64,000 bases of DNA, from the NCBI GenBank assembly GCA_964489015.1, contig CAZAXD010000007.1, positions 2,257 through 66,256 on the forward strand, in the 5' to 3' direction. Of the stretch, positions 1 through 56,017 are shown piece by piece. Position 1 is the stretch's first letter, and the number at the start of each line of letters is the position of its first letter. This DNA is from an uncultured Sphingobacterium sp. GTDB lineage: Bacteria > Bacteroidota > Bacteroidia > SpSt-205. Under the pieces are notes generated by a model. It saw only the letters and a program-made list of their open reading frames with translations. It was not told the DNA's origin and searched no databases. A program made the translations under genes and the position numbers.

Positions 1-635
1 TGAGGCTTGGTTTTGAGGGTCAGTGACCGCTGATAATACAGCCCCATGTCGCCAGCCACACTACGCCCTGGCTGCGTCGTAAGCCCCCCTACCGTGGTAG
101 CCCCGGTCAGGTTGCTCTGCACGTATTTGAGGGCTACGCCGGCCGAAAGGTTGCTTGTGATGACATGGCTATAACCAGCCGAGAACGCAAACTCATTCGC
201 ATCATACTCGCCTGTTTTGATGCCAGCGTTATCTGTAAACTCAATCCGCCCTAAGCTAAAGAACGTCAGGGAAGCGCCAATCGCACCGGCCTTTTCACTG
301 ATATTCCAAAAGGCCGGCACATAGAGGTGATTGATGTCTCCGATACCGAGAGCCCTTAGCCAGGGAGTATACGAAAAGGCTACCCCAGCCCGCTCTTGGG
401 CTAAAGCCAAGGCGCCTACATTCCAATGCATACTATACATATTGGCCGGCAGGGCTACACCCGCTTCGGCTAAGCCACCGCTTCGAGCATCAGGACAGAT
501 GAGCAGAAAAGGAACGGCCGTTGTAATAGCTCGAATCTGGCCGGCCGGTGTCGATTGGGCTTGTCCATAAAGCAAAGACATACTCACACCGCTAAGACTG
601 AGAAGACTTAGTAGCCCCCAGAAGGCACTTCGCAT
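1..635 (-). CDS. porV: Type IX secretion system outer-membrane protein PorV (partial, runs off window start)
   Basis: Not in ORF track. Hand translation from ATG 635: MRSAFWGLLSLLSLSGVSMSLLYGQ...RAITTAVPFLLICPDARSGGLAEAGVA...SYTPWLR...VAGDMGLYYQ. ITTAVPFL-x-I-x-PDAR matches the PorV N-terminus. Frame stays open to base 3. Confidence 0.9.
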   Translation of the reverse strand, partial: MRSAFWGLLSLLSLSGVSMSLLYGQAQSTPAGQIRAITTAVPFLLICPDARSGGLAEAGVALPANMYSMHWNVGALALAQERAGVAFSYTPWLRALGIGDINHLYVPAFWNISEKAGAIGASLTFFSLGRIEFTDNAGIKTGEYDANEFAFSAGYSHVITSNLSAGVALKYVQSNLTGATTVGGLTTQPGRSVAGDMGLYYQRSLTLKTKP

Positions 636-656
636 AAGTAGCAAGGAAAATCTGTA

Positions 657-664
657 CAAAGGTA
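657..664 (-). promoter_or_regulatory. Bacteroidota -7 element TACCTTTG for porV
   Basis: Perfect TAnnTTTG on minus strand, 21 nt upstream of ATG 635. Confidence 0.65.
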
Positions 665-715
665 CAATATTGCGGCCATGCTCTAAACCTAGCCCTAGCC
701 TTCACCAAACGTTTG

Positions 716-723
716 TATTTTTG
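716..723 (+). promoter_or_regulatory. -7 element TATTTTTG for tRNA-Ser/fbp unit
   Basis: Perfect TAnnTTTG ending 4 nt before tRNA position 1 (728). Confidence 0.75.
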
Positions 724-727
724 CCTT

Positions 728-814
728 GGAGAGATGCCGGAGTGGTCGAACGGGCCTGACTTGAAATCAGGTAGCCTCTTACGAGGCTCGGGGGTTCGAA
801 TCCCTCTCTCTCCG
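728..814 (+). tRNA. tRNA-Ser (anticodon TGA), CCA not encoded
   Basis: Acceptor GGAGAGA/TCTCTCC plus discriminator G814; D arm CCG-GAGTGGTCGAA-CGG; anticodon arm CCTGA-CTTGAAA-TCAGG; long variable arm AGCCTC-TTAC-GAGGCT; T loop TTCGAAT. Confidence 0.97.
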
Positions 815-815
815 C

Positions 816-1811
816 ATGGTAACGCTTGAGCAGTATATCGCTGACCGCCAGCAGGAAATCGAGGGCACCACCGGCGCCTTCTCCAAAATCCTGCGGGATC
901 TAGGCTTCGGTGCGAAAATAATTAGCTTCTACTTGCGACGAGCGGCCCTGGCCAACGTCCTGGGCGAGCTAGGCATAACGAATATTCAAGGGGAGTCCGT
1001 TCAAAAGCTCGATCATCTAGCCAATACGCTTTTTCACCAGCTTTTTGCCAAAAACCCACATGTCGCCGGCTATGCGTCTGAAGAAGATGACACGTTTACA
1101 CCACTCAATCCCGATGGACGCTATGTCATCCTGGTTGATCCCTTGGATGGATCTTCGAATATCGATGTTGGTGTCCCCGTCGGAACTATCTTTTCGATTT
1201 ATCGGCGTCAAAGCCCGACAGGCACCCCCTGTGTCTTAGAAGATTTTCTACAAGGTGGCCGTGCACAGGTGGCAGCGGGCTATATCCTCTACGGCACAAG
1301 CACCCTCCTATTTTACACCACAGGCAAAGGCGTGCAAGGTTTTACGCTAGAGCCCGCTGCCAGCGAGTTTCTCTTGACCCACCCCGAGGTTCGGATGCCT
1401 AGCCGGTCCAGTTACTACTCCTTCAACGATAACCAGCTTCACGAGTGGGACCCCAAACTGCAGGCATTCGTTCAAGCGCTACATAAACGCAATCAGACCA
1501 GCAGCAAGCCCGCTTCCCTGCGTTATGTAGGGGCTTTAGTGGCAGATTTTCACCGCAACCTTCTGAAGGGGGGCTTCTTCATGTATCCCGGTACGGTCCA
1601 AAAGCCGCAGGGCAAGTTACGCCTCTTATACGAGGGATACCCCATGGCCTGGCTTGTAGAAGTGGCCGGGGGCGAAGCTTCCGATGGGACAAAAGCTCTC
1701 CTCGACGTAACCCCCACCGAATTGCATCAGCGAACGCCTCTTTTCTTGGGGACCCCAGAAGACATGACCCTCCTAAAGCAACATCTTTATGTCTCTCTGG
1801 AAGCGGTTTAA
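816..1811 (+). CDS. fbp: Fructose-1,6-bisphosphatase class 1
   Basis: Motifs ASEE, DPLDGSSNIDV, RYVGALVADFHR, GKLRLLYE. Confidence 0.95.
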   Translation: MVTLEQYIADRQQEIEGTTGAFSKILRDLGFGAKIISFYLRRAALANVLGELGITNIQGESVQKLDHLANTLFHQLFAKNPHVAGYASEEDDTFTPLNPDGRYVILVDPLDGSSNIDVGVPVGTIFSIYRRQSPTGTPCVLEDFLQGGRAQVAAGYILYGTSTLLFYTTGKGVQGFTLEPAASEFLLTHPEVRMPSRSSYYSFNDNQLHEWDPKLQAFVQALHKRNQTSSKPASLRYVGALVADFHRNLLKGGFFMYPGTVQKPQGKLRLLYEGYPMAWLVEVAGGEASDGTKALLDVTPTELHQRTPLFLGTPEDMTLLKQHLYVSLEAV

Positions 1812-2544
1812 GCGGGCCATTCGGGCGCTCTTTGGGAAAGCGGTAGAAGCTATCGAGGATCCGCGCCTGATCTTAGAGCAGAATATCCGTGAGCTCAACG
1901 ATCAGGTCCCCAAGATGAATCAGCATATTGCTTCGGTCAAAGCAACTGTCACCCTGCTAGAACGGGAGCTTGCCAAGTACAAGAAGGATTACGAAGAGCT
2001 CATCGCCCGGGTCAAGGTCGCCCTTAATCAAAATCGTGAAGACCTAGCCCAGCAGTATGCGCTCCAGATCGAACGGCTCAAGGACTCCATCGCACAGACC
2101 CAGGTAGAGCTGGAAGCGGCGCAAAAAGCTTATGAAAAGGCCCTCGAAATCAAAAAGCTCTTCATGAAAGAGCGGGAACGTAAAATCCAGGAAGCACGCG
2201 CCGCCCTACAGCAATATGAACGGGCCCAATGGCAAGCTAAAATCGCTGAAACCTTTGAGCAGTTTGAAGTAGGGGGCATCGACCAAACGCATGACGAGAT
2301 GGTTCGTCGCCTGCAAGAAAAAGCCGCTCAAAATGAAGCACGCCTGGGGCTCGCGCTCGAATCTATAGATACCACCCGGCTCAAACTCGACGAGGAGATG
2401 GAAAAGCTTCAAGCCCGCGAGTCCCTAGCCCGCCTCAAAGCGGAGTTAGGACTCGAATTGCCGTCTTCTTCCCAAAAGGCTCAGCCGGCTCCCCCTGACG
2501 ATGCTTCCTCCTTCAATCCCCCACCCAAAGAACCCCTGCTATAA
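1789..2544 (+). CDS. pspA: PspA/IM30 (Vipp1-like) family protein
   Basis: N-terminal amphipathic MSLWKRFKRAIRA, EDPRLILEQNIREL, long coiled coil, C-terminal LARLKAELG. Confidence 0.88.
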   Translation: MSLWKRFKRAIRALFGKAVEAIEDPRLILEQNIRELNDQVPKMNQHIASVKATVTLLERELAKYKKDYEELIARVKVALNQNREDLAQQYALQIERLKDSIAQTQVELEAAQKAYEKALEIKKLFMKERERKIQEARAALQQYERAQWQAKIAETFEQFEVGGIDQTHDEMVRRLQEKAAQNEARLGLALESIDTTRLKLDEEMEKLQARESLARLKAELGLELPSSSQKAQPAPPDDASSFNPPPKEPLL

Positions 2545-2635
2545 AAATCATATGCCCACTTACCTAACTGCAGGCTCTGATCGCAGCTCCAGGCTGATAA
2601 CAAAGCGCACCCCCTAGTAGTATTTACGCAGCATA

Positions 2636-3811
2636 ATGCGTATTCTCCAACTATCTCCTAAGCCCGTCTACCCTCCAAAAGACGGGGGGGCCATCGGTAA
2701 CCTGATTTTTGTAGAATTATGGCAAAGGTTAGGGTATGAGGTTCGGGTTTTAGCGATGGCTACGCCCAAGCATCCGGCTCCTCCTACGCCTCCCTCTCAC
2801 TTCCATCAGCAAACCGTTTTCGTTGATACGAATCCAGGACCTTTCTCTGCCTTAGTCAATCTATTTCTATCCGATCAGCCCTATCACGTCGACAGATTTT
2901 ACAAGCCAGCCTATGAAAAGGCTTTAGCTGAGGTCATTCAAAGCTACCGCCCGGACCTCATCCAAGTAGAGTCACCCTACCTTACGCCCTACGTTACGGT
3001 CTATAACATTCCCCGCGTCTACCGGCTACACAATATCGAGCACCAGATCTGGCAGCGCTTGGCCCAAGAACGAAGCGGCCTCGTCCAGTGGTACCTCCAT
3101 CTTCAAGCGCGCCGCATCCGTCAGTACGAAGCCCATATTATGCATCTGTATTACGGGCTTTTACCAATCTCCGAGAAAGAAGCGGCGTGGATCCACCAAT
3201 CGGGCTATGATGGCCCTTCTGTGCTCATTCCTTTTATGATTGACGTGAGCGCCTATCAGGCGCCTCCCCTTCGTAAGCAGAATCCCCATATTGGCTATAT
3301 CGGTGGACTTGACTGGTTACCGAATATCTCCGGTCTAGTGTGGTTTCTAGAGAAAGTCTGGCCGGCTTTTGTCGCTCGTCACCCAGAGGCCCAGTTTTTC
3401 ATTGCTGGTCGAAACTGTCCAGCCTCTCTAAGGCGATATGAGAGCCGAAACGTACACATTCTGGGCGAGGTGGCTGATGCCAAAGCTTTTCTATACGACC
3501 ACGATATCATTGTGGTACCGCTTTTTGCTGGGAGCGGGGTTCGCGTCAAAATCATTGAAGCCTTTGCTACAGGCCGTGCCGTTATCTCCACCACTATCGG
3601 CGCCGAAAGTCTCATATATCATCCGCATGTCAATATTTACATTGCGGATACCGCAGCAGCCTTTCTCAGTGCGCTTGAAAATCTCTATGTAAGTTCTGTC
3701 GAACGCCAAACCCTGGGACGAAACGCCCGTATTCTCGTAGAGCAATTTTACAATATTGAGCAGGTCCTTCCGACAGCCAGACGCTTTTACGAGCGGGTCA
3801 CTGCCTCCTAA
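2636..3811 (+). CDS. Glycosyltransferase family 4
   Basis: YPPKDGGAI N-terminus; GSGVRVKIIEAFATGRAVISTTIGAE GT-B motif. Confidence 0.88.
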   Translation: MRILQLSPKPVYPPKDGGAIGNLIFVELWQRLGYEVRVLAMATPKHPAPPTPPSHFHQQTVFVDTNPGPFSALVNLFLSDQPYHVDRFYKPAYEKALAEVIQSYRPDLIQVESPYLTPYVTVYNIPRVYRLHNIEHQIWQRLAQERSGLVQWYLHLQARRIRQYEAHIMHLYYGLLPISEKEAAWIHQSGYDGPSVLIPFMIDVSAYQAPPLRKQNPHIGYIGGLDWLPNISGLVWFLEKVWPAFVARHPEAQFFIAGRNCPASLRRYESRNVHILGEVADAKAFLYDHDIIVVPLFAGSGVRVKIIEAFATGRAVISTTIGAESLIYHPHVNIYIADTAAAFLSALENLYVSSVERQTLGRNARILVEQFYNIEQVLPTARRFYERVTAS

Positions 3812-3812
3812 G

Positions 3813-4862
3813 GTGGCCTTTCGGGTAGTCGGCCTCATGGCCGGCAGCTCCCAGGATGGCCTAGACCTGGCGCTCGTGCGCCTACAATACCTCGGCGAAA
3901 CCTGGCGCTATGACGTATTGCATGCCCAGACCGAACCGTACCCGCTTGCCTTGCGAGAGCGCCTCCTAGACGCTGCTGACAGCCCTTCACATGCTCTCCT
4001 AAGCCTCCATGTAGATTACACCTACTGGACCGCCGCCGTGCTTCAAAAGCACCTCACAAGGTTTGTATATGACCTAATTGCTTGGCATGGCCCTACGATT
4101 TTTCATAACCCCTCTCAGCGATTAACCTGGGCCTTAGGCGATGCCGAATTACTCTCAGCGCTAACTGGCCGGCCCGTGGTTACCCATTTCCGGGCGAGAG
4201 ATTTAGCGTATGGGGGACAAGGAGCGCCCCTCATCCCAAATGCCGACGAACTGCTATGGCCCCAGTATCCCACCTTGCTAAACCTAGGTGGCATTTGTAA
4301 CGTGACGCACCTACCGAGTCGAAAGGCCTTCGATATAGGTCCTTGTAATCAACTCCTTAATGCCCTCGCCCGAGAACTATCGCCGCCCCTGCCCTATGAT
4401 CCAGCCGGTCAGTTTGCTCGTCAAGGTAGCTACCTACCTGCGTTAGCTCAGCGCTTTTGGGAGGCGCCCCCTCTCCAAAATAGACCCACTGCCCTCGCCA
4501 ATGTCGACATCCAGACCCATTTTATAGAGCCATTCCTAACCTTTGCGGCTAATCCTATAGATAAACTGCATACGGCCACGCGCTGCATTGCCAATTTGAT
4601 TGCACAAAAGCTTAATGCGCTGAAGACCCCCACCGTACTCATGACCGGCGGCGGCACTTACAATGCCTTCCTTTTAGAACTCATCCAAACCCAGATCACA
4701 CCCGCTACTACAATCCTAATCCCTGACTCAACACTCATCGAATTTCGGGAGGCTATCGGTTTTGCGTTATTGGGCCTACTGCGCTATCTGGAGCTCACCA
4801 ATGTGGACGGGCGATGGACCGGCGGCACCCACCGCCACAGTAGCGGAAGCCTGAGCCTTTAG
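3813..4862 (+). CDS. anmK: Anhydro-N-acetylmuramic acid kinase
   Basis: GLMAGSSQDGLD, HGPTIFH, GGQGAPL, NLGGICN, FDIGPCNQLL, GGGTYN. Start moved to GTG 3813, just after the upstream stop. Confidence 0.9.
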   Translation: MAFRVVGLMAGSSQDGLDLALVRLQYLGETWRYDVLHAQTEPYPLALRERLLDAADSPSHALLSLHVDYTYWTAAVLQKHLTRFVYDLIAWHGPTIFHNPSQRLTWALGDAELLSALTGRPVVTHFRARDLAYGGQGAPLIPNADELLWPQYPTLLNLGGICNVTHLPSRKAFDIGPCNQLLNALARELSPPLPYDPAGQFARQGSYLPALAQRFWEAPPLQNRPTALANVDIQTHFIEPFLTFAANPIDKLHTATRCIANLIAQKLNALKTPTVLMTGGGTYNAFLLELIQTQITPATTILIPDSTLIEFREAIGFALLGLLRYLELTNVDGRWTGGTHRHSSGSLSL

Positions 4863-5713
4863 CTTTTACGCAGAGGTATCGCTAATAAGGGATAGGCTAA
4901 ATGCTGAACGACATTCTCCGTAATACTACCAAATAAAAACTGGGCTAGACCTTTGCGACCATGCGTGCCCATTATCAAGAGATCAGCCTTCTCGGCTTCC
5001 ATAGCTTGCCGTAATCCCTCTTCTACAGAGATGTCGTTGTATACGCGAAGCTCCCAATGGGGATAGCTAAGGGCTGCCTTCAAATTATCCAAAAAGCGAT
5101 TGATAGTAGCCGTATCAAAAAAGACATACGGGGTGTTGATAACGGACAGAATGACTTTTACATTGGGCCATGCTGCCAAAAATCGAATAGCATCTTGAAT
5201 GACTTCTATCGTTTTATCTTCAAAAACCTCTATCGGGAGAAGCACCCGCTCATAAGGTCTGTAACTATTTTGAGGATGCACAGCTAAAACCGGTAAAGGG
5301 CTATGCCGAATAAGTCGAGCCGTATTAGTCCCCAAGATACCGCCATCCCAGAGGCTCGTAGCCCCTCGAGTACCTACTACAATGAGATCGACATCTGAGA
5401 ACTTCGACAGGTAATCCTCGACCCGCCATACGGCATAATCAGATAAAAGGTGCGCATGAACGGGGACTTTATCGACGTCTACGGCCTGCACATAGGCAAG
5501 CAAATGCTTCTCTAATTCGGCTCGGATACGCCTATCAAGCTCGGCATCTATGACAGCCGAAAGCCCTCCCTGGTAAGCAATGCTGGCATAGGGCCGATCA
5601 TAAACATGCACCACGCGGATCGCTTTCCCCAGCTGACGGGCCAGGCTGATCGCATACCGATAGGCTACCTGGGCTGTCTCTGAGAAGTCTGTCAGGTGTA
5701 AAATGGCGTTCAT
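4859..5713 (-). CDS. Universal stress protein (tandem USP domains)
   Basis: ILHLTDFSE, DLIVVGTRG, DLLIMGTHGRKGLAQFLFGSITENV. Confidence 0.9.
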   Translation of the reverse strand: MNAILHLTDFSETAQVAYRYAISLARQLGKAIRVVHVYDRPYASIAYQGGLSAVIDAELDRRIRAELEKHLLAYVQAVDVDKVPVHAHLLSDYAVWRVEDYLSKFSDVDLIVVGTRGATSLWDGGILGTNTARLIRHSPLPVLAVHPQNSYRPYERVLLPIEVFEDKTIEVIQDAIRFLAAWPNVKVILSVINTPYVFFDTATINRFLDNLKAALSYPHWELRVYNDISVEEGLRQAMEAEKADLLIMGTHGRKGLAQFLFGSITENVVQHLAYPLLAIPLRKS

Positions 5714-5720
5714 TTCCTAG

Positions 5721-5728
5721 CAAAATTA
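5721..5728 (-). promoter_or_regulatory. -7 element TAATTTTG (usp)
   Basis: Perfect match, 7 nt spacer to ATG 5713. Confidence 0.7.
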
Positions 5729-5739
5729 CAAAAAAAAGA

Positions 5740-8034
5740 TTATTGCCAGGGACGCTGCGGAAAGAGCGTATAGCCCAGATGCAGAAAGACCCGAAAGGGT
5801 TGAGGCTGTCTATCGTAGTACGTCAAAAAGGCCCCTATCGGTCCAAAAAAAGTCTTGTAAAAGACTCCCACCATGCCATACCGATACAAGGGTAACCAAG
5901 ATAAGCTCTCCCCTGGAAGCTCGATTTCGCCAGTGGGGTTGGAACGAGTGGGCAACACTAGGCGAGCCACGGGCTGATACAAACTCGCACTCACCCGCAG
6001 CGAGAGTTTACGCCAAAAGACGATAGTCATATTTCCGCCGACGGCGCCATAGATTCGATTGTAAAGCTCGGGTAGTAAGAGTTGAGGACTTTCAGGAAAG
6101 GGCTCAAAACGTGGGCTGGTCAAAAGGCTAGTAATCGAATCCAAGTAAGGTTTCTGCAGAGACACACCGGCCTCGGCCCGGAGGCCTACAGAAAAACCCG
6201 AAAAGAGCCGAAGCTGCTGGCGAAAGCGAAGACGGGCTTCTGGCCAGTAATGCTCTGCTCGCGTGTAGAGAGGATTCGGCTCAAAGGGACGCTCAACCGC
6301 TTGATTAAGGCTGCCCTGAAGCCAAAGCCCCGCCCCCTCTAAAGGGTACTGGCGATCATCCTCGGTACTAACCTGCACCTCGATAGAGACGCCTTGCGCT
6401 GTGGTACTAGTTCCACGGCTAGTGCCCTGATAAAGGTAACGGTCCTCCTGCCGCAGGCGGTGTACCATGGCTTGGATGGCGGCTTGCTTATAGGTCCAAG
6501 TCACCCCACCACTAAGCCAGTCTATATCCGAGAAGAAGCCTGCTTCCCGAGCGCGGGGCAGCCATGCGGAGCCCAGCGTTTGGTAGGTATAACGCAATAC
6601 GCGGCTTCTTCCAGTTAAGTAGATATCCCATGGTAGCGGCGGCCTGATACTGAGGCGAAGCTCCAAGGCCTGGGCAAAAGTGCCTTGAGTAGCTAGGAGT
6701 TCGCCCTGCCAGGCTGCCCACCAGACCTTCTCTCCCCGCACCCCTACCTGCCATGCATACCCCTGGGGTGAATACACAGCCAAACCCGTACGTAAGGCAA
6801 CCCCGCCCCGTCGTCTCAGGTAGATGCTGAGCAAGGTGCGACCATCCGCCAGCTGCTCATACGCCGGTAGTAGGCTGTAAAACGGCACCGCACTTCGTAG
6901 GCGCGAAAGGCCCCGCCTGAGCCTCGTGGCAGACACCATATCCCCAGGGCGGATTCCCACCACCCGCCGGTAAAAAAAGTGTTCACTCCGACTCGCCGGG
7001 TAAAAATCTAAGCTATCGGCTCGTATGGCCTCCCCTCTATACGCCCGAAAAAACTGCCTTCGTGCCGCTAGCGTCGTAGAATCCGCCTGCCATCCCCCGA
7101 TTTCCTGCCGAAGTTCCTCTATACAGCTCTTGGTCGCCTCATAACCACGCTGGATCGCAAAAGAAAGCCCCTGCACTGAAAAGTCCGTACTGCTCATCTC
7201 CCCTAAATCCGGCTGGATAAAAAAGCCTCTTTCCGGCATCTTTTGCCAGCTAAGCGGATCCGATAAGTGCGAAAATAGACGCCAGTAGTACCCCTTCTCC
7301 TGAAAATCTTCTAAGGTCATGGGTGGCGATCCTACATGTACCCCGATAATGTAATTCGGCTTGAAGACCTTTTGCATGGGCTCAATGGGAAAGTTGTTAT
7401 AAACCCCACCATCGACTAGATTGACGTACTGCCGAGTCGTGATCGGAGCAAAAAAGATAGGGACCGAAATCGACACCCGCACTGCTAAGGGCAAACTTCC
7501 CCGCGCTAAAATCACGGCCTGCTTCTTATAGAGATCAGCGCCAATAGCCCGATAAGACACTACTAGGCTATCAAAGTTACCTTTAGCCGCCAAGCTAGGG
7601 CCCGCTAGCTTTTCATTGAGACGAAGGTTGATCTCAAAATCAGATACCACCTGATCAGGCAAGGGGACATCGCCTTTCGTGAGAAAATCGAGAGGAACTT
7701 CGCCTATGGTGATATCATGCGGCGCTAAGAGCTTGAAGTATCGATCCTCTCGAAAGAGAAGCCCCGGTGCAAACCAGGCACCCGCCTCCCGAAAGATCAT
7801 AGCCTGCATTTCAGCGGGCGTATAACCCGCCGCATAAAACGCCCCAACCATCGCCCCCATTGATGTACCAGTAATGTAATCTATCGGAATGCCTTCCTCC
7901 TCTAAGGCTTGTATCACGCCAATATGGGCCGCCCCACGAGCCCCTCCTCCTGAGAGTACAAGCCCTATCCGGGGACGACTGGCCGTGTCCTGGGCCCAGA
8001 CTAAACACACGATACCCCAGATCCACCCACGCAT
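5740..8034 (-). CDS. Patatin-like phospholipase with C-terminal POTRA/beta-barrel region (PlpD-like)
   Basis: [19 protein letters not shown] motifs; signal peptide [15 protein letters not shown] from ATG 8034; aromatic-rich barrel-type C-terminus. Confidence 0.85.
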
Positions 8035-9621: not shown

Positions 9622-10929
9622 TTATTCTTCCCGCTCGATCAGAGCGCCCAGCTGCCGAAGGCGCTCATCAATGGCCTCATAGCCGCGAGCGATCTGCTCC
9701 GCATTTTCGATGAGGCTTTCGCCTTCAGCGGACAATGCTGCTATGAGCAGCGCAATGCCCGCCCGAATATCCGGACTACTCATCCGGATGCCCCGTAATG
9801 GGTGGCACCGGCCCAGCCCCAAGACCAAGGCCCGATGCGGATCACACAAAACCACCTGCGCCCCCATTTCGATAAGCCGGTCTACAAAAAAAAGTCGGCT
9901 CTCAAACATCTTTTGGTGTATAAGCACCTGACCTGCCGCTTGGGTCGCTACCACCAGCAGAATGCTCAATAGGTCCGGCGGCGTACCCGGCCAAGTATGA
10001 TCTGACAACGTGAGAATATTTCCCTCCCAGAGCGTGTCAGGCTCATAGATCGAGGGCGGATCGACAAGTAGAACGTTATCCTGGAGCTTAGCCGGAATGC
10101 CCAGCCGCTCAAAGGGCCGCGTGATAGGTCCCAAGTGCTCGGCAGGTACAGGGCCGATCGTAATAGGGCTTTGCGTCATAGCAGAAAGGCCTATCAAGCT
10201 TCCAACTTCGATAATGTCGGGCAGAAGAACATGGACAGTCCCGCGCAGCTTCGGCGTGCCTTGAATGGTGAGTCGGTTGGTGCCTATCCCCGTAATAGCG
10301 GCGCCCATCTGCTCCAGCAAGCGGCATAGCTGTTGGATATAGGGCTCACAAGCAGCATGGTAGAGGGTTGTTTCCCCATGGGCGGTCGACGCTGCTAAGA
10401 GGAGGTTAGCTGTTCCGGTGACAGACGCCTCCTCCAGCAAAATAGGTACGCCACGTAGCCGCCTAGGCGCAGCTAAGCGATACAGCTCAGCCTTTTCATC
10501 ATACGAGATAACGGCTCCTAAGGCTTCAAAGCCTAGAAGGTGCGTATCCATCCGTCGACGCCCTATCTTGTCTCCCCCCGGACGGTACAAATAGGCTTCC
10601 CCACACCGAGCTAGCAAGGCCCCCGCTAAAAGCACCGAACCCCGAATCTGGCGGAAGCGTTGCTTGAGCTCGGGCTCTAGCAGCCGCGTCGGATCAATCT
10701 CCTGAGCGGTAATGCGAACGGCATGGTCACTGAGCCACTCAATCCGAGCGCCGAGACTGGCGATCAGCTCTAGATGCCGCTCCACGTCCAAAATCCGGGG
10801 AAGGTTGTGAATCTCTACTGGCTCTGTCGTCAAAAGCGTAGCCGAGAGAACCTGGAGCGCTTCGTTCTTAGCGCCTTGTGGCGTGTAATGCCCGCTAAGC
10901 GGCACCCCACCTTTTACCCAGAGCTTCAT
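9622..10929 (-). CDS. murA: UDP-N-acetylglucosamine 1-carboxyvinyltransferase
   Basis: GAKNEAL, PGGDKIGRR (Asp-type, as in Bacteroidota), SVTGTANL, MFESRL, DIRAG, RGYE. Confidence 0.95.
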   Translation of the reverse strand: MKLWVKGGVPLSGHYTPQGAKNEALQVLSATLLTTEPVEIHNLPRILDVERHLELIASLGARIEWLSDHAVRITAQEIDPTRLLEPELKQRFRQIRGSVLLAGALLARCGEAYLYRPGGDKIGRRRMDTHLLGFEALGAVISYDEKAELYRLAAPRRLRGVPILLEEASVTGTANLLLAASTAHGETTLYHAACEPYIQQLCRLLEQMGAAITGIGTNRLTIQGTPKLRGTVHVLLPDIIEVGSLIGLSAMTQSPITIGPVPAEHLGPITRPFERLGIPAKLQDNVLLVDPPSIYEPDTLWEGNILTLSDHTWPGTPPDLLSILLVVATQAAGQVLIHQKMFESRLFFVDRLIEMGAQVVLCDPHRALVLGLGRCHPLRGIRMSSPDIRAGIALLIAALSAEGESLIENAEQIARGYEAIDERLRQLGALIEREE

Positions 10930-21054: not shown

Positions 21055-22242
21055 ATGCCTTATTATGTAAAGGCCGGACAAGTGCCATCCAAGCGCCACA
21101 TTCAGTTTCGCAATAACGGGAAGCTCTTCAGCGAAGAGCTCGTTAGTACCGAAGGCTTCTCGGATTTATATAGCCTCATCTATCATGTGCATCCGCCTAC
21201 GACCGTACGAGCCATAGCGGAGCAGACCTTGGACCTCCAGCCCAAGGCAGCTGTACCCAACAACATGCAGCATCGGGCGTTTCGGGGCTTTCAGGTCCAG
21301 CCCAAAGCCGATTATTTAGAGAGCCGAGTGATTGTGCTCTTCAATGAAGACGTGCACCTCGCCCTGGCCGCCCCCACGCAAGGCTTCTCGGATTACTTCT
21401 ACAAAAACGCCTCTGCGGATGAGCTCATCTTCGTCCACGAAGGGACCGGCGAACTGCGGACCGGTTACGGCCGAGTAGCCTTTGGACCTGGTGATTATTT
21501 ACACATTCCCCGCGGTACGATTTATCAACTGCACTTTGACACGCCCCAAAATCGCCTCTTTATCATAGAGTCTTACTGTGGTGCCATCCGCTTCCCCCGT
21601 CGCTACCTCAATGAATACGGCCAACTGATGGAGCATGCGCCCTTCCATGAGCGCGACCTGCGCCCCCCCAAAGACTTAGAAACCCATTACGAAATCGGGG
21701 AATTCGTGGTCAAGATCAAAAAGCGAGGCGAGCTTTTCACGTACGTTTATGCTACGCACCCCTTCGACTTTGTGGGCTGGGACGGCTGTCTCTACCCTTA
21801 TGCTTTTTCGATCCACGAGTTTGAGCCGATCACGGGCCGGGTGCATCAGCCGCCGCCCGTTCATCAAAACTTCGAAGCGCGACAGTTTGTCGTCTGTTCC
21901 TTCGTACCCCGGCTTTATGATTATCACCCGCTGGCGATCCCAGCGCCTTACAATCATAGCAACGTCGACTCCGACGAAGTGCTCTACTACGTAGAGGGCG
22001 AATTCATGAGCCGTAAACACGTGGAGCGCGGCATGATCACCCTGCATCCGATGGGAATCCCGCACGGGCCGCACCCCGGCGCCGTGGAACGTAGCATCGG
22101 CGCCAAAGAAACCCGAGAGCTAGCTGTCATGGTAGACACCTTCCGTCCCCTCGCCATCACGTCAGAGGCCCTTGCCATCGAACAGCCTGATTATTTCGTT
22201 TCTTGGCTTCCAGACAACCTTCAACTCTCGCAAAAATCCTAA
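21055..22242 (+). CDS. hmgA: Homogentisate 1,2-dioxygenase
   Basis: NASADE, FVVCSFVPR, PYNHSNVDSDEVLYY, HGPHPG. Confidence 0.93.
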   Translation: MPYYVKAGQVPSKRHIQFRNNGKLFSEELVSTEGFSDLYSLIYHVHPPTTVRAIAEQTLDLQPKAAVPNNMQHRAFRGFQVQPKADYLESRVIVLFNEDVHLALAAPTQGFSDYFYKNASADELIFVHEGTGELRTGYGRVAFGPGDYLHIPRGTIYQLHFDTPQNRLFIIESYCGAIRFPRRYLNEYGQLMEHAPFHERDLRPPKDLETHYEIGEFVVKIKKRGELFTYVYATHPFDFVGWDGCLYPYAFSIHEFEPITGRVHQPPPVHQNFEARQFVVCSFVPRLYDYHPLAIPAPYNHSNVDSDEVLYYVEGEFMSRKHVERGMITLHPMGIPHGPHPGAVERSIGAKETRELAVMVDTFRPLAITSEALAIEQPDYFVSWLPDNLQLSQKS

Positions 22243-34713: not shown

Positions 34714-35415
34714 ATGGAGCCGACCATTGCTTTCATTGGCGCAGGTGGTGCGCATGATATACACATAGGAAATTCCGCTGCTATCCTAACATGGGAAGGC
34801 AAGCGATATCTCATCGACTGCGGCTTTACTGTTTATCCCCGGCTCGTCGCTAAAGAGCTTATTGAGACAATTGATGCGGTGCTCATTACCCATTTACACG
34901 ATGATCACATCGGCAGTCTATCAGCCTTTCTTTTTCATCGGCACTTTATCTCCCAAAAATCGCCCGTACCCGTACTTGTCCCCCCAGGTGAATTGAGTGC
35001 CAAGCTAAAGACCTATCTTGTCTACCTTATGGGCGAACCGCTTGAACGATTTGCTGAGCTGATGACCCCTGCAACTTATGCCGCCTCTCTAGAAGCCATC
35101 GACACTAGCTATCAGCACGCGCCTTACATGCCCAGCACTGCTTACCTTTTCAAGAGTCCCGCACTCCATGTGCTATACAGCGGAGACATCGGTAAGCCGC
35201 TCGGCGTGCTAGCTGATCCTACCTGGCTCCAAAAGCATCCCAATCTCTGGGTCTTTCATGATGTCAGCTTTGTGCAAACGCCTTCTCATACCTATTACAG
35301 AGACCTCATGCCCTATGTAGACAGATGCCACTTGTGGGGCTATCACTGTGACCCAGCAAAAGCCCCTGCCGATAACATTATACCATTAGTACACGAGCGA
35401 TTTCTTTTAGGCTAA
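34714..35415 (+). CDS. MBL-fold metallo-hydrolase (RNase Z/ElaC-like)
   Basis: LIDCG, THLHDDHIG, YSGD, HDV, GYH. Start moved to ATG 34714. Confidence 0.8.
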   Translation: MEPTIAFIGAGGAHDIHIGNSAAILTWEGKRYLIDCGFTVYPRLVAKELIETIDAVLITHLHDDHIGSLSAFLFHRHFISQKSPVPVLVPPGELSAKLKTYLVYLMGEPLERFAELMTPATYAASLEAIDTSYQHAPYMPSTAYLFKSPALHVLYSGDIGKPLGVLADPTWLQKHPNLWVFHDVSFVQTPSHTYYRDLMPYVDRCHLWGYHCDPAKAPADNIIPLVHERFLLG

Positions 35416-55243: not shown

Positions 55244-56017
55244 TTAGCGTCCCTTCCACTGCGGGGGTCGTTTCTCCATAAAGGCTTGCATACCTTCTTT
55301 TTGGTCTTGCGTCGCAAAGAGGAGATAGAAGTTTCGGCGCTCAAAGTGAAGGCCTTCCTCGAGGGAGAGTTCGTAGCTTTTGAGCACGGCCTGCTTGGCT
55401 AGCTGAACGGCGAGAGGAGGCATGCTCGCAATCTCTGTGGCTAGCTTGATAGCTTCCTCTAAATAAAGCTCGACAGGAACGACCCGGCTCACAAGCCCCC
55501 ATTCATAAGCCTGCTGCGCTGAAAAGAATCGCCCTGTTAGGATGTGCTCCATTGCGCGGGATTTGCCAATGGCTCGGGTGAGTCGCTGCGTACCGCCTGC
55601 GCCGGGAATAACACCAATTTTGATTTCCGGCTGGCCAAACTGAGCGGTCTCACTCGCCACGATGATGTCACAAAGCATCGCTAGCTCACAGCCGCCCCCT
55701 AAGGCAAACCCGCTAACTGCCGCAATCACAGGCTTTTTCAGCCGCTTGATTTGGTCCCACCGCTGGAATTGGTCTAGCATCAGCATGTCGACGGCCGAAT
55801 CGCCTGCCATCTCCTTGATGTCGGCGCCCGCCGCAAAGGCGCGCTCGTTTCCGGTGATCACCGTAACCCGCACATCCTCATCCGTGTCTAATTGTAGGAG
55901 CATATTAGAGAGGTCTGCAACGAGAGCCCGATTGAGGGCGTTGAGGCTCTCTGGGCGATTGAGTCGAATCAGCGCTACGCCTGGCGCGACGGCCTTTTCG
56001 AGTACAAGGTGACTCAT
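55244..56017 (-). CDS. Enoyl-CoA hydratase (crotonase, PaaF-like)
   Basis: LNRPESLNAL, FAAGADIKEM, ALGGGCELA, FGQPEIKIGVIPGAGGTQRL. Start ATG 56017. Confidence 0.93.
   Translation of the reverse strand: MSHLVLEKAVAPGVALIRLNRPESLNALNRALVADLSNMLLQLDTDEDVRVTVITGNERAFAAGADIKEMAGDSAVDMLMLDQFQRWDQIKRLKKPVIAAVSGFALGGGCELAMLCDIIVASETAQFGQPEIKIGVIPGAGGTQRLTRAIGKSRAMEHILTGRFFSAQQAYEWGLVSRVVPVELYLEEAIKLATEIASMPPLAVQLAKQAVLKSYELSLEEGLHFERRNFYLLFATQDQKEGMQAFMEKRPPQWKGR

Follow-up and report, generated by a model that had tools for sequence, protein, structure and literature searches.

The 64,000-nucleotide stretch of DNA analyzed here (hereafter, the window), from an uncultured Sphingobacterium sp. of the Bacteroidota, carries a gene for tRNA-Ser(UGA) whose 3′ end is followed, after a single nucleotide, by the start codon of fbp, which encodes a class 1 fructose-1,6-bisphosphatase (FBPase), and a gene of the PspA/IM30 family (pspA) overlaps the end of fbp. 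The features of this locus are as follows.

716..723, + strand: Bacteroidota-type −7 promoter element TATTTTTG (TAnnTTTG), found by motif scan and conserved in relatives
728..814, + strand: tRNA-Ser(UGA), type II, with a long variable arm, discriminator G814 and no encoded CCA (ARAGORN, Rfam, RNAalifold)
815..815, + strand: a single C, the whole “intergenic region” between the discriminator and the ATG, equal to tRNA position 74 (sequence reading, relatives)
816..1811, + strand: fbp, class 1 FBPase, 331 amino acids (aa), ATG start (Pfam, NCBIfam, alignment with a PDB entry)
1789..2544, + strand: PspA/IM30-family gene (Pfam PF04012)

Relatives were collected by a scan of one genome per species, which yielded 15 genomes with an FBPase 69–77% identical to that of the window. 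All 15 were assembled from metagenomes, carry one of the labels Bacteroidia, Bacteroidota or Sphingobacterium (loci L001–L015) and, to judge by the isolate names, come from hot springs. An exact-sequence search brought up no record identical to the FBPase of the window. The next-best FBPase matches are at most 50% identical and belong to other lineages.

The only tRNA called by ARAGORN within the window is tRNA-Ser(tga), at 728–815, and the Rfam tRNA model RF00005 scores 58.8 bits over 728–814 (gathering score, 29). The acceptor strands, read directly from the sequence, are GGAGAGA (728–734) and TCTCTCC (807–813), the latter followed by the discriminator G814, C815, and the ATG at 816–818. The gene has the cloverleaf, long variable arm, conserved T loop and UGA anticodon of a tRNA-Ser, and its helices covary: RNAalifold on the 16 orthologues gives 28 pairs with no mismatches and one gapped cell, six of the 28 showing compensatory changes (e.g., the acceptor pair 5:68, changed from A–U to G–C in five genomes). 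By this covariation, the tRNA is under structural selection. The composition of the junction, namely, tRNA-Ser(UGA), one C, and then the ATG of fbp, is thus confirmed. A first-pass annotation of the window had placed the ATG where the CCA tail would stand; the tRNA indeed lacks an encoded CCA, positions 74–76 reading C-A-U, but the ATG starts at position 75 rather than 74, C815 being C74.

The same annotation had considered MVTLEQYI a normal N-terminus for a class 1 FBPase, and all family-level data agree with that. Escherichia coli FBPase (PDB 2gq1) aligns residue 1 on residue 1 (MKTLGEFI versus MVTLEQYI, E = 8e-92), the Pfam match to PF00316 begins at residue 3 (profile position 2), with PF18913 matched as well, and the NCBIfam class 1 model NF006778 matches from residue 1 with 422.7 bits against a cut-off of 368, assigning the protein to this class. 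An in-frame TGA lies at 762–764, the first possible start after it being ATG 816, and the next in-frame candidate, read by eye, is a TTG at codon 40, an unlikely start since conserved sequence would be deleted. Codons 2–8 differ among the 16 genomes mostly by synonymous or conservative substitutions. Given the residue-1 alignments, ATG 816 is the true start of fbp, and a downstream protein start, named earlier as an observation that would overturn the proposal, is not what the alignments indicate.

For the downstream gene, Pfam PF04012 (PspA/IM30) scores 81.9 bits against a cut-off of 33.9, and the NCBIfam PspA equivalog model scores 34.7 against 243; since the latter is far below the cut-off, we assign the protein to PspA at the family level only. 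Its overlap with fbp is 23 nucleotides (nt) in 15 of the 16 genomes and 17 nt in L012, and pspA probably belongs to the same transcript and is translationally coupled to fbp. A gluconeogenic enzyme and a membrane-stress protein in one translationally coupled operon form an unusual pairing.

In positions 1–6000 the plus strand has no TAnnTTTG motif other than TATTTTTG at 716–723, which ends 4 nt upstream of the tRNA, whose first base is G728. This motif has been described as the −7 consensus for sigma-ABfr, the primary sigma factor of Bacteroidota (PMC7366714). A scan for sigma-70 promoters produced no match, which is irrelevant here, since that motif class is not the one that Bacteroidota use. 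Each of the 16 genomes has TAnnTTTG at the corresponding position, its spacing to the tRNA being 4 nt in 12 genomes, 5 nt in three, and 11 nt in L002, so that in 15 of the 16 the motif ends 4–5 nt before the first base of the tRNA, while the stretch upstream of the promoter cannot be aligned among the 16 genomes. As the same motif spacing precedes leaderless starts elsewhere in the window (see below), transcription should begin at G728 or an adjacent base. If so, the 5′ end of the primary transcript may already be that of the mature tRNA, and RNase P would have little or nothing to cut away.

No second promoter of this type was found for fbp. Even with one mismatch allowed, TAnnTTTG is absent from the plus strand from 728 to about 930, in line with the earlier remark that the tRNA contains no such motif that could serve as a separate promoter; at the place where a leaderless promoter for fbp would be expected, 804–811 (CTCTCTCT), only one of the six specified positions matches, as read by eye. 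The terminator scan found no terminator-like site between the tRNA and fbp, the gap being 1 nt. Upstream of ATG 816, then, there are only C815 and the acceptor stem, with no Shine–Dalgarno sequence and no single-stranded leader, and the start is AUG; the geometry allows only a leader of 0 or 1 nt after a predicted cut at the 3′ end of the tRNA.

Conservation of the junction in relatives and the existence of other tRNA–start junctions in the same genomes had both been named as tests of the proposal, and both were borne out. In all 15 relatives tRNA-Ser(UGA) abuts fbp. The junction reads ...CTCCG-C-ATG in the window and 13 of the relatives, the deviating ones being L011 (G-C-AA-ATG) and L012 (G-C-C-ATG); in L001 and L002 the coding sequence has two additional codons after this ATG. 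No tRNA occurs within about 3 kb of fbp in 16 more distant loci. Among the metagenomic loci listed with an identical 25-nt tRNA 3′ end (at least 120, approximately, from many unrelated lineages), none has the C-ATG-fbp junction; the discriminator is followed there by CCA, another tRNA or a terminator-like hairpin. On this distribution, the abutment of the tRNA and fbp is not due to chance. In L012 the junction (2998–3003, G-C-C-A-T-G) spells an encoded CCA that shares its A with the start codon of fbp, and maturation of the tRNA with this CCA would deprive the start codon of its A.

The second kind of junction involves a gene for an AAA ATPase, which itself lies outside the window and whose orthologues were traced to their own contigs. 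In four genomes this gene follows tRNA-Met(CAU) at a distance of 2–4 nt after the discriminator: in L001 and L002, with the tRNA-Met on the opposite strand, the junctions are A-C-TT-ATG and A-C-GT-ATG; in L163/L164 a full tRNA-Met is followed by A-C-T-ATG; and in L157, where the contig begins within the tRNA, its 3′ part is followed by A-C-GCT-GTG. In six more distant genomes (L152/153, L154, L155/156, L158, L159/160, L161/162) no tRNA was found before the AAA ATPase gene. Its place is taken by an element of 42–49 nt, consisting of GGCGAG, a variable linker of 9–17 nt, a 6-bp hairpin with the 7-nt T-like loop TGCGACT, and CTCGCC. This minihelix corresponds to the acceptor (6 bp) stacked on the T arm (6 bp) of the ancestral tRNA-Met, whose D and anticodon arms are missing. 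Directly after the element comes A-C-ATG, or G-C-ATG in L155, and 4–5 nt before it lies a promoter motif of the TACCTTTA type. The elements are located as follows.

L152: 9956–10000
L154: 10033–10078
L155: 9952–10000
L158: 9959–10000
L159: 8348–8391
L161: 9947–9994

The pairing of the minihelix is standard in 72 out of 72 cells (43–58% in slid controls), with compensatory changes in two T-stem pairs, and minimum-free-energy folds contain the acceptor helix in six out of six sequences and the full minihelix in four out of six. ARAGORN made no tRNA call on it, no Rfam family matched it above threshold, and a search of the window and of 25 related loci with a covariance model of it (R1) brought up no additional copies. 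Being tRNA-derived, no longer a tRNA, and placed at the predicted end of a message, the minihelix of L152, L154, L155, L158, L159/L160, and L161/L162 belongs to the t-element class; the window, with its complete tRNA, has no such element. The acceptor/T-arm part is what tRNA end-processing enzymes recognize. As the tRNA-Met relic retains just this part directly before the ATG, the tRNA shape appears to be kept as a cleavage signal, and the retained minihelix is the strongest argument for a tRNA-shaped structure acting as a processing signal.

At the third gene, tig, the first of tig-clpP-clpX, the pair tRNA-Arg(CCU)–tRNA-Leu(UAG) abuts the coding sequence in four genomes, with the junction A-C-TTG in three of them and A-C-CT-GTG in one, the TTG or GTG start lying 1–3 nt after the discriminator. 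The Tig proteins of these four genomes are 44–59% identical to the L152 protein. The tRNA-Arg(CCU)–tRNA-Leu(UAG)–tig loci are as follows.

L152: 8764–8932, − strand
L165, L166, L167: about 9841–10003, + strand

Several of these loci share assemblies with those bearing the tRNA-Ser–fbp junction, namely, L152 with L005, L154 with L008, L155 with L014, L158 with L010, and L160 with L012. An internal control is given by L159 (6363–6453, − strand), where the sequence A-C-ggcgc-TAACTTTG-tggc-ATG, all within 17 nt, leads from tRNA-Arg(CCG) into a phosphoglucomutase-family gene; hence, where a gene downstream of a tRNA has a promoter of its own, that promoter is plainly visible. The tRNA end, promoter and leaderless start are packed extremely tightly at this locus.

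The 3′ ends of tRNA genes were compared in the window, L001–L015, and L152–L167, comprising 35 distinct gene/trailer combinations from 12 tRNA species. Position 74 is an encoded C in all 35 and for every species; CCA is absent from 34, being spelled only in L012. Spacers between adjacent tRNAs are 1–5 nt long and always begin with C, e.g., Ala-C-Ala-CT-Ser in L155 (1492–1733). RNase Z is the expected enzyme for CCA-less tRNA precursors and leaves a 5′ phosphate on the downstream product; the precursor of tRNA-Ser(UGA), without an encoded CCA, is a substrate of this type. The cut could fall after G814, producing C-AUG, or after C815, producing an exact 5′-AUG; the universal C74 hints at the latter, which would at the same time yield a tRNA ready for the addition of C and A.

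A message with such a 5′ end would have to be translated without a leader, and the leaderless pattern ascribed to this DNA in the first-pass annotation holds for the window as a whole. Seventeen of its 44 TAnnTTTG motifs lie 3–8 nt before the start of an open reading frame (ORF) of at least 100 aa, eight of them at exactly 4 nt, compared to zero or one such placement for each of four control motifs. Starts preceded by the motif at 3–8 nt (mode 4 nt) are found on the plus strand at 21055, 51358, 42155, 33072 (GTG), 44446, and 56080, and on the minus strand at 56017, 18316 (sucD), 46626, 46109, 41886 (thiolase), 39461 (valS), 25085 (apt), 16048, 9604, and 5713. For six of these genes the start calls are supported by the fit of the N-termini to protein families: the sucD and thiolase starts align 1 to 1 with the N-terminus of the respective NCBIfam family, and those of valS, apt, an enoyl-CoA hydratase and an FAD oxidoreductase lie within four residues of it. 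From this motif placement, the organism appears to use leaderless genes heavily, a large share of its transcription units looking leaderless. This is unexpected given the published view of Bacteroidota as leaderless-poor, with leaderless genes in one of 37 Bacteroidetes/Chlorobi genomes surveyed (PMC3160421), 90% of the phylum placed in the “non-SD leader” (non-Shine–Dalgarno) class (PMC6028130), and 3.7% of 5′ untranslated regions (UTRs) shorter than 10 nt in Bacteroides thetaiotaomicron (PMC7366714). The first 60 nt of the processed fbp mRNA are not unusually unstructured as judged by folding (z = +0.62).

Taking all this into account, we consider it probable that the tRNA and fbp-pspA are co-transcribed and that an RNase Z-type cut at the tRNA 3′ end then produces a leaderless fbp-pspA mRNA with a 5′ phosphate. 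With fbp following the tRNA without an intervening terminator, promoter or spacer, tRNA-Ser, fbp, and pspA would be made as one transcript from the TATTTTTG promoter; in silico, this is the arrangement of tRNA punctuation, with neither promoter nor terminator between the tRNA and the mRNA. The tRNA fold would be recognized by an endonuclease, expected to be RNase Z, whose cut at the 3′ end, after G814 or after C815, would free the tRNA for completion by the CCA-adding enzyme. The remaining mRNA would start with 5′-phosphate-C-AUG or 5′-phosphate-AUG and would be translated by the leaderless (5′-terminal AUG) route, pspA following by coupling through the 23-nt overlap. For leaderless translation in E. 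coli, the 5′ end must bear a phosphate and the AUG must lie near it (PMC6101614, citing Giliberti 2012 and Krishnan 2010). As long as the tRNA stays attached, its acceptor/T-arm helix, ending 2 nt before the AUG, would block initiation, so that the message would become active only upon cleavage. The AAA ATPase gene, behind tRNA-Met or its minihelix relic, and tig-clpP-clpX, behind tRNA-Leu, would be served by the same arrangement. In evolution, an ORF may have come to depend on the promoter and the 3′ cleavage of a tRNA, after which the tRNA body could decay only as long as cleavage still worked.

We also lean, with more reserve, toward the wider proposal that this hot-spring Bacteroidota lineage practises a bacterial tRNA punctuation, in which tRNAs and a minihelix “t-element” would have their first base as the start of transcription and would be cut at their 3′ ends, yielding 5′-monophosphate leaderless mRNAs of housekeeping operons (fbp-pspA, tig-clpP-clpX, the AAA ATPase gene), with an endonuclease activating the mRNA and C74 marking the cut so as to give an exact 5′-AUG. 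The suggestion that gluconeogenesis and membrane stress are in this way tied to tRNA maturation as a form of regulation is speculation.

Several points weigh against these readings. The transcription start is one that we infer from motif spacing only. No RNase Z gene was identified within the 64-kb window. C74 is part of the CCA anti-determinant of RNase Z elsewhere and may slow cleavage or shift its site. Minimum-free-energy folding of the tRNA–fbp co-transcript does not yield the cloverleaf, a result that is uninformative about occlusion of the start. TTG and GTG, the starts of tig, are poor leaderless starts in E. coli; GUG is common in leaderless mRNAs of actinobacteria (PMC3848588).

An alternative explanation is that the abutment reflects genome compaction and that fbp has a promoter of its own, e.g., one served by an alternative sigma factor of the extracytoplasmic function (ECF) type, overlapping the 3′ half of the tRNA. 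These genomes are indeed compact, as seen in the short tRNA–tRNA spacers and the overlapping genes, a promoter fits even into the 17-nt gap of L159, the promoter scans covered only TAnnTTTG and sigma-70 motifs, and the tRNA sequence is nearly invariant, so that its conservation is no test of a promoter hidden within it. Yet the scan found nothing within one mismatch of TAnnTTTG at or just after the tRNA, and compaction leaves unexplained both the spacing of 1 nt (occasionally 2–3 nt) in 16 genomes and the common geometry, N73-C-start, at three genes. Above all, it gives no reason for a non-functional tRNA-Met relic with compensated acceptor and T arm between a promoter and an ATG. We therefore regard this explanation as unlikely.

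It may also be that the tRNA or minihelix remains on the mRNA as a structural cap at the 5′ end, serving stability or regulation, and that the uncleaved fusion, or a small uncleaved fraction of it, is translated. Stem-loops at the 5′ terminus stabilize bacterial mRNAs in other systems, and the minihelix begins at the predicted transcription start. Moreover, a tRNA-Lys lies within the 5′ UTR of TK0306 in Thermococcus kodakarensis (PMC4247193). However, the helix ends 2 nt before the AUG, i.e., inside the mRNA footprint of the ribosome, leaderless initiation wants the AUG near a phosphorylated 5′ end, and tRNA-Ser(UGA) needs to be released for decoding. Besides, a stabilizing hairpin needs none of the tRNA features observed, such as the 12-bp coaxial stack of acceptor and T stems, the 7-nt T loop with C56 and A58, or the single-stranded N73-C. 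Permanent attachment thus seems very unlikely.

We find it just as hard to believe that the transcript is cut inside fbp and then trimmed in the 3′-to-5′ direction, in which case the tRNA and the mRNA would be mutually exclusive products, the 5′ end of fbp would be destroyed, and fbp would be poorly expressed or expressed by another route. Exonucleolytic trimming is the main route of 3′ maturation in E. coli; it would fit the lack of an identified RNase Z gene within the window and the encoded CCA that overlaps the A of the ATG in L012. But CCA-less genes offer exonucleases no stop point and in studied bacteria depend on RNase Z, fbp and the essential housekeeping operon tig-clpP-clpX would hardly have been kept long in an arrangement that destroys their messages, and trimming explains neither the strict spacing nor the retained minihelix. 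An origin of the junction as an integration site, mobile elements being known to target tRNA 3′ ends, was set aside, as there is no integrase among the ORFs read beside the junction.

Cleavage of the kind proposed here, at the 3′ end of the tRNA, has its closest counterpart in animal mitochondria, where polycistronic transcripts are freed of their tRNAs by RNase P and RNase Z/ELAC2 and the mRNAs that remain are leaderless. As in mitochondrial tRNA punctuation, a CCA-less tRNA abuts the start codon, with no promoter, leader or ribosome-binding site in between, the 5′ end of the mRNA would come from tRNA 3′ processing, and translation would be leaderless. Unlike a mitochondrion, the present bacterium is free-living and has hundreds of ordinary promoters, and few of its genes are so arranged; the units are short, each with one or two tRNAs, an operon of one to three genes and its own promoter, and the 5′ end of the tRNA seems to coincide with the transcription start, so that RNase P may be unneeded. 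Plant mitochondria have t-elements, tRNA-like structures defining mRNA ends via RNase P and RNase Z (PMC1920247). The minihelix of the six related genomes resembles them in being derived from a tRNA, no longer a tRNA, and located exactly at an mRNA end; it differs in being bacterial, in directly following a promoter and in abutting the start codon of a leaderless mRNA, and its cleavage is only predicted. The window differs further in holding a complete tRNA.

Co-transcription of tRNAs with protein-coding genes in bacteria is exemplified by the thrU-tyrU-glyT-thrT-tufB operon of E. coli, the tufB mRNA keeping a normal leader with a ribosome-binding site. Another example is secG-leuU (PMC2241853). 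As in these operons and in the archaeal TK0306 (PMC4247193), the tRNA at the junction studied here would be co-transcribed with protein genes and separated from them by an endonuclease; in contrast to it, the mRNAs of those systems keep leaders, and excision of the tRNA does not expose a start codon. Leaderless mRNAs produced post-transcriptionally by an endonuclease have also been described for MazF in E. coli. MazF, a stress toxin, cleaves at ACA and produces a 5′-OH end, whereas the signal here would be the tRNA fold and the process constitutive. The MazF model of leaderless mRNAs is disputed (PMC9031893). Finally, leaderless mRNAs that arise directly from promoters are known in Actinobacteria, Deinococcus-Thermus, and Archaea (PMC4633059, PMC3160421), and the window itself has at least 16 such genes; the mode of translation would be the same, but the 5′ end of fbp would be a processed monophosphate and not a primary triphosphate. 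The full-text literature searched, largely without subscription journals, yielded no bacterial example in which the 3′ end of a tRNA abuts a start codon or its processing would expose one.

Messages punctuated by tRNAs and translated without leaders are regarded as a peculiarity of organelles. If confirmed, the present case would mean that free-living bacteria evolve the same logic, with tRNA 3′ processing directly making housekeeping mRNAs translatable; it would also provide a natural bacterial tRNA relic kept only as an RNA-processing signal, and the view of Bacteroidota as barely using leaderless translation would be revised. A tRNA or minihelix followed by C-ATG could, in addition, serve as a compact expression part. 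A more immediate consequence is that gene callers mis-start such genes; for the AAA ATPase, the coding sequence of several database entries runs on upstream through the tRNA or minihelix. The gene on record at L154 10001–11098 (365 aa) starts too far upstream, the true start probably being 10079, and for L002 618–1742 the mechanical ORF list gives 374 aa, with a frame running through the tRNA. The over-long database entries P0002 (408 aa) and P0007 (440 aa) may contain the same start error.

Two further genes of the window are as follows.

34714–35415, + strand: metallo-beta-lactamase-fold (MBL) protein, 233 aa (TIGR02651, 46.9 bits against a cut-off of 293)
3–644, − strand: PorV gene (Pfam)

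The MBL protein was considered as a candidate RNase Z and rejected on its TIGR02651 score. It resembles RNase Z/ELAC and Apyc1 in its N-terminal part only, its best PDB match is an uncharacterized metal beta-lactamase, followed by Apyc1-type proteins, and it is probably a different MBL hydrolase. By its PorV gene, the organism belongs to Bacteroidota. Divergently from the tRNA promoter, a TACCTTTG motif on the minus strand (657–664) lies 12 nt before TTG 644 and 18 nt before ATG 638 of the PorV gene, which, given these distances, seems to have a short leader rather than a leaderless start.

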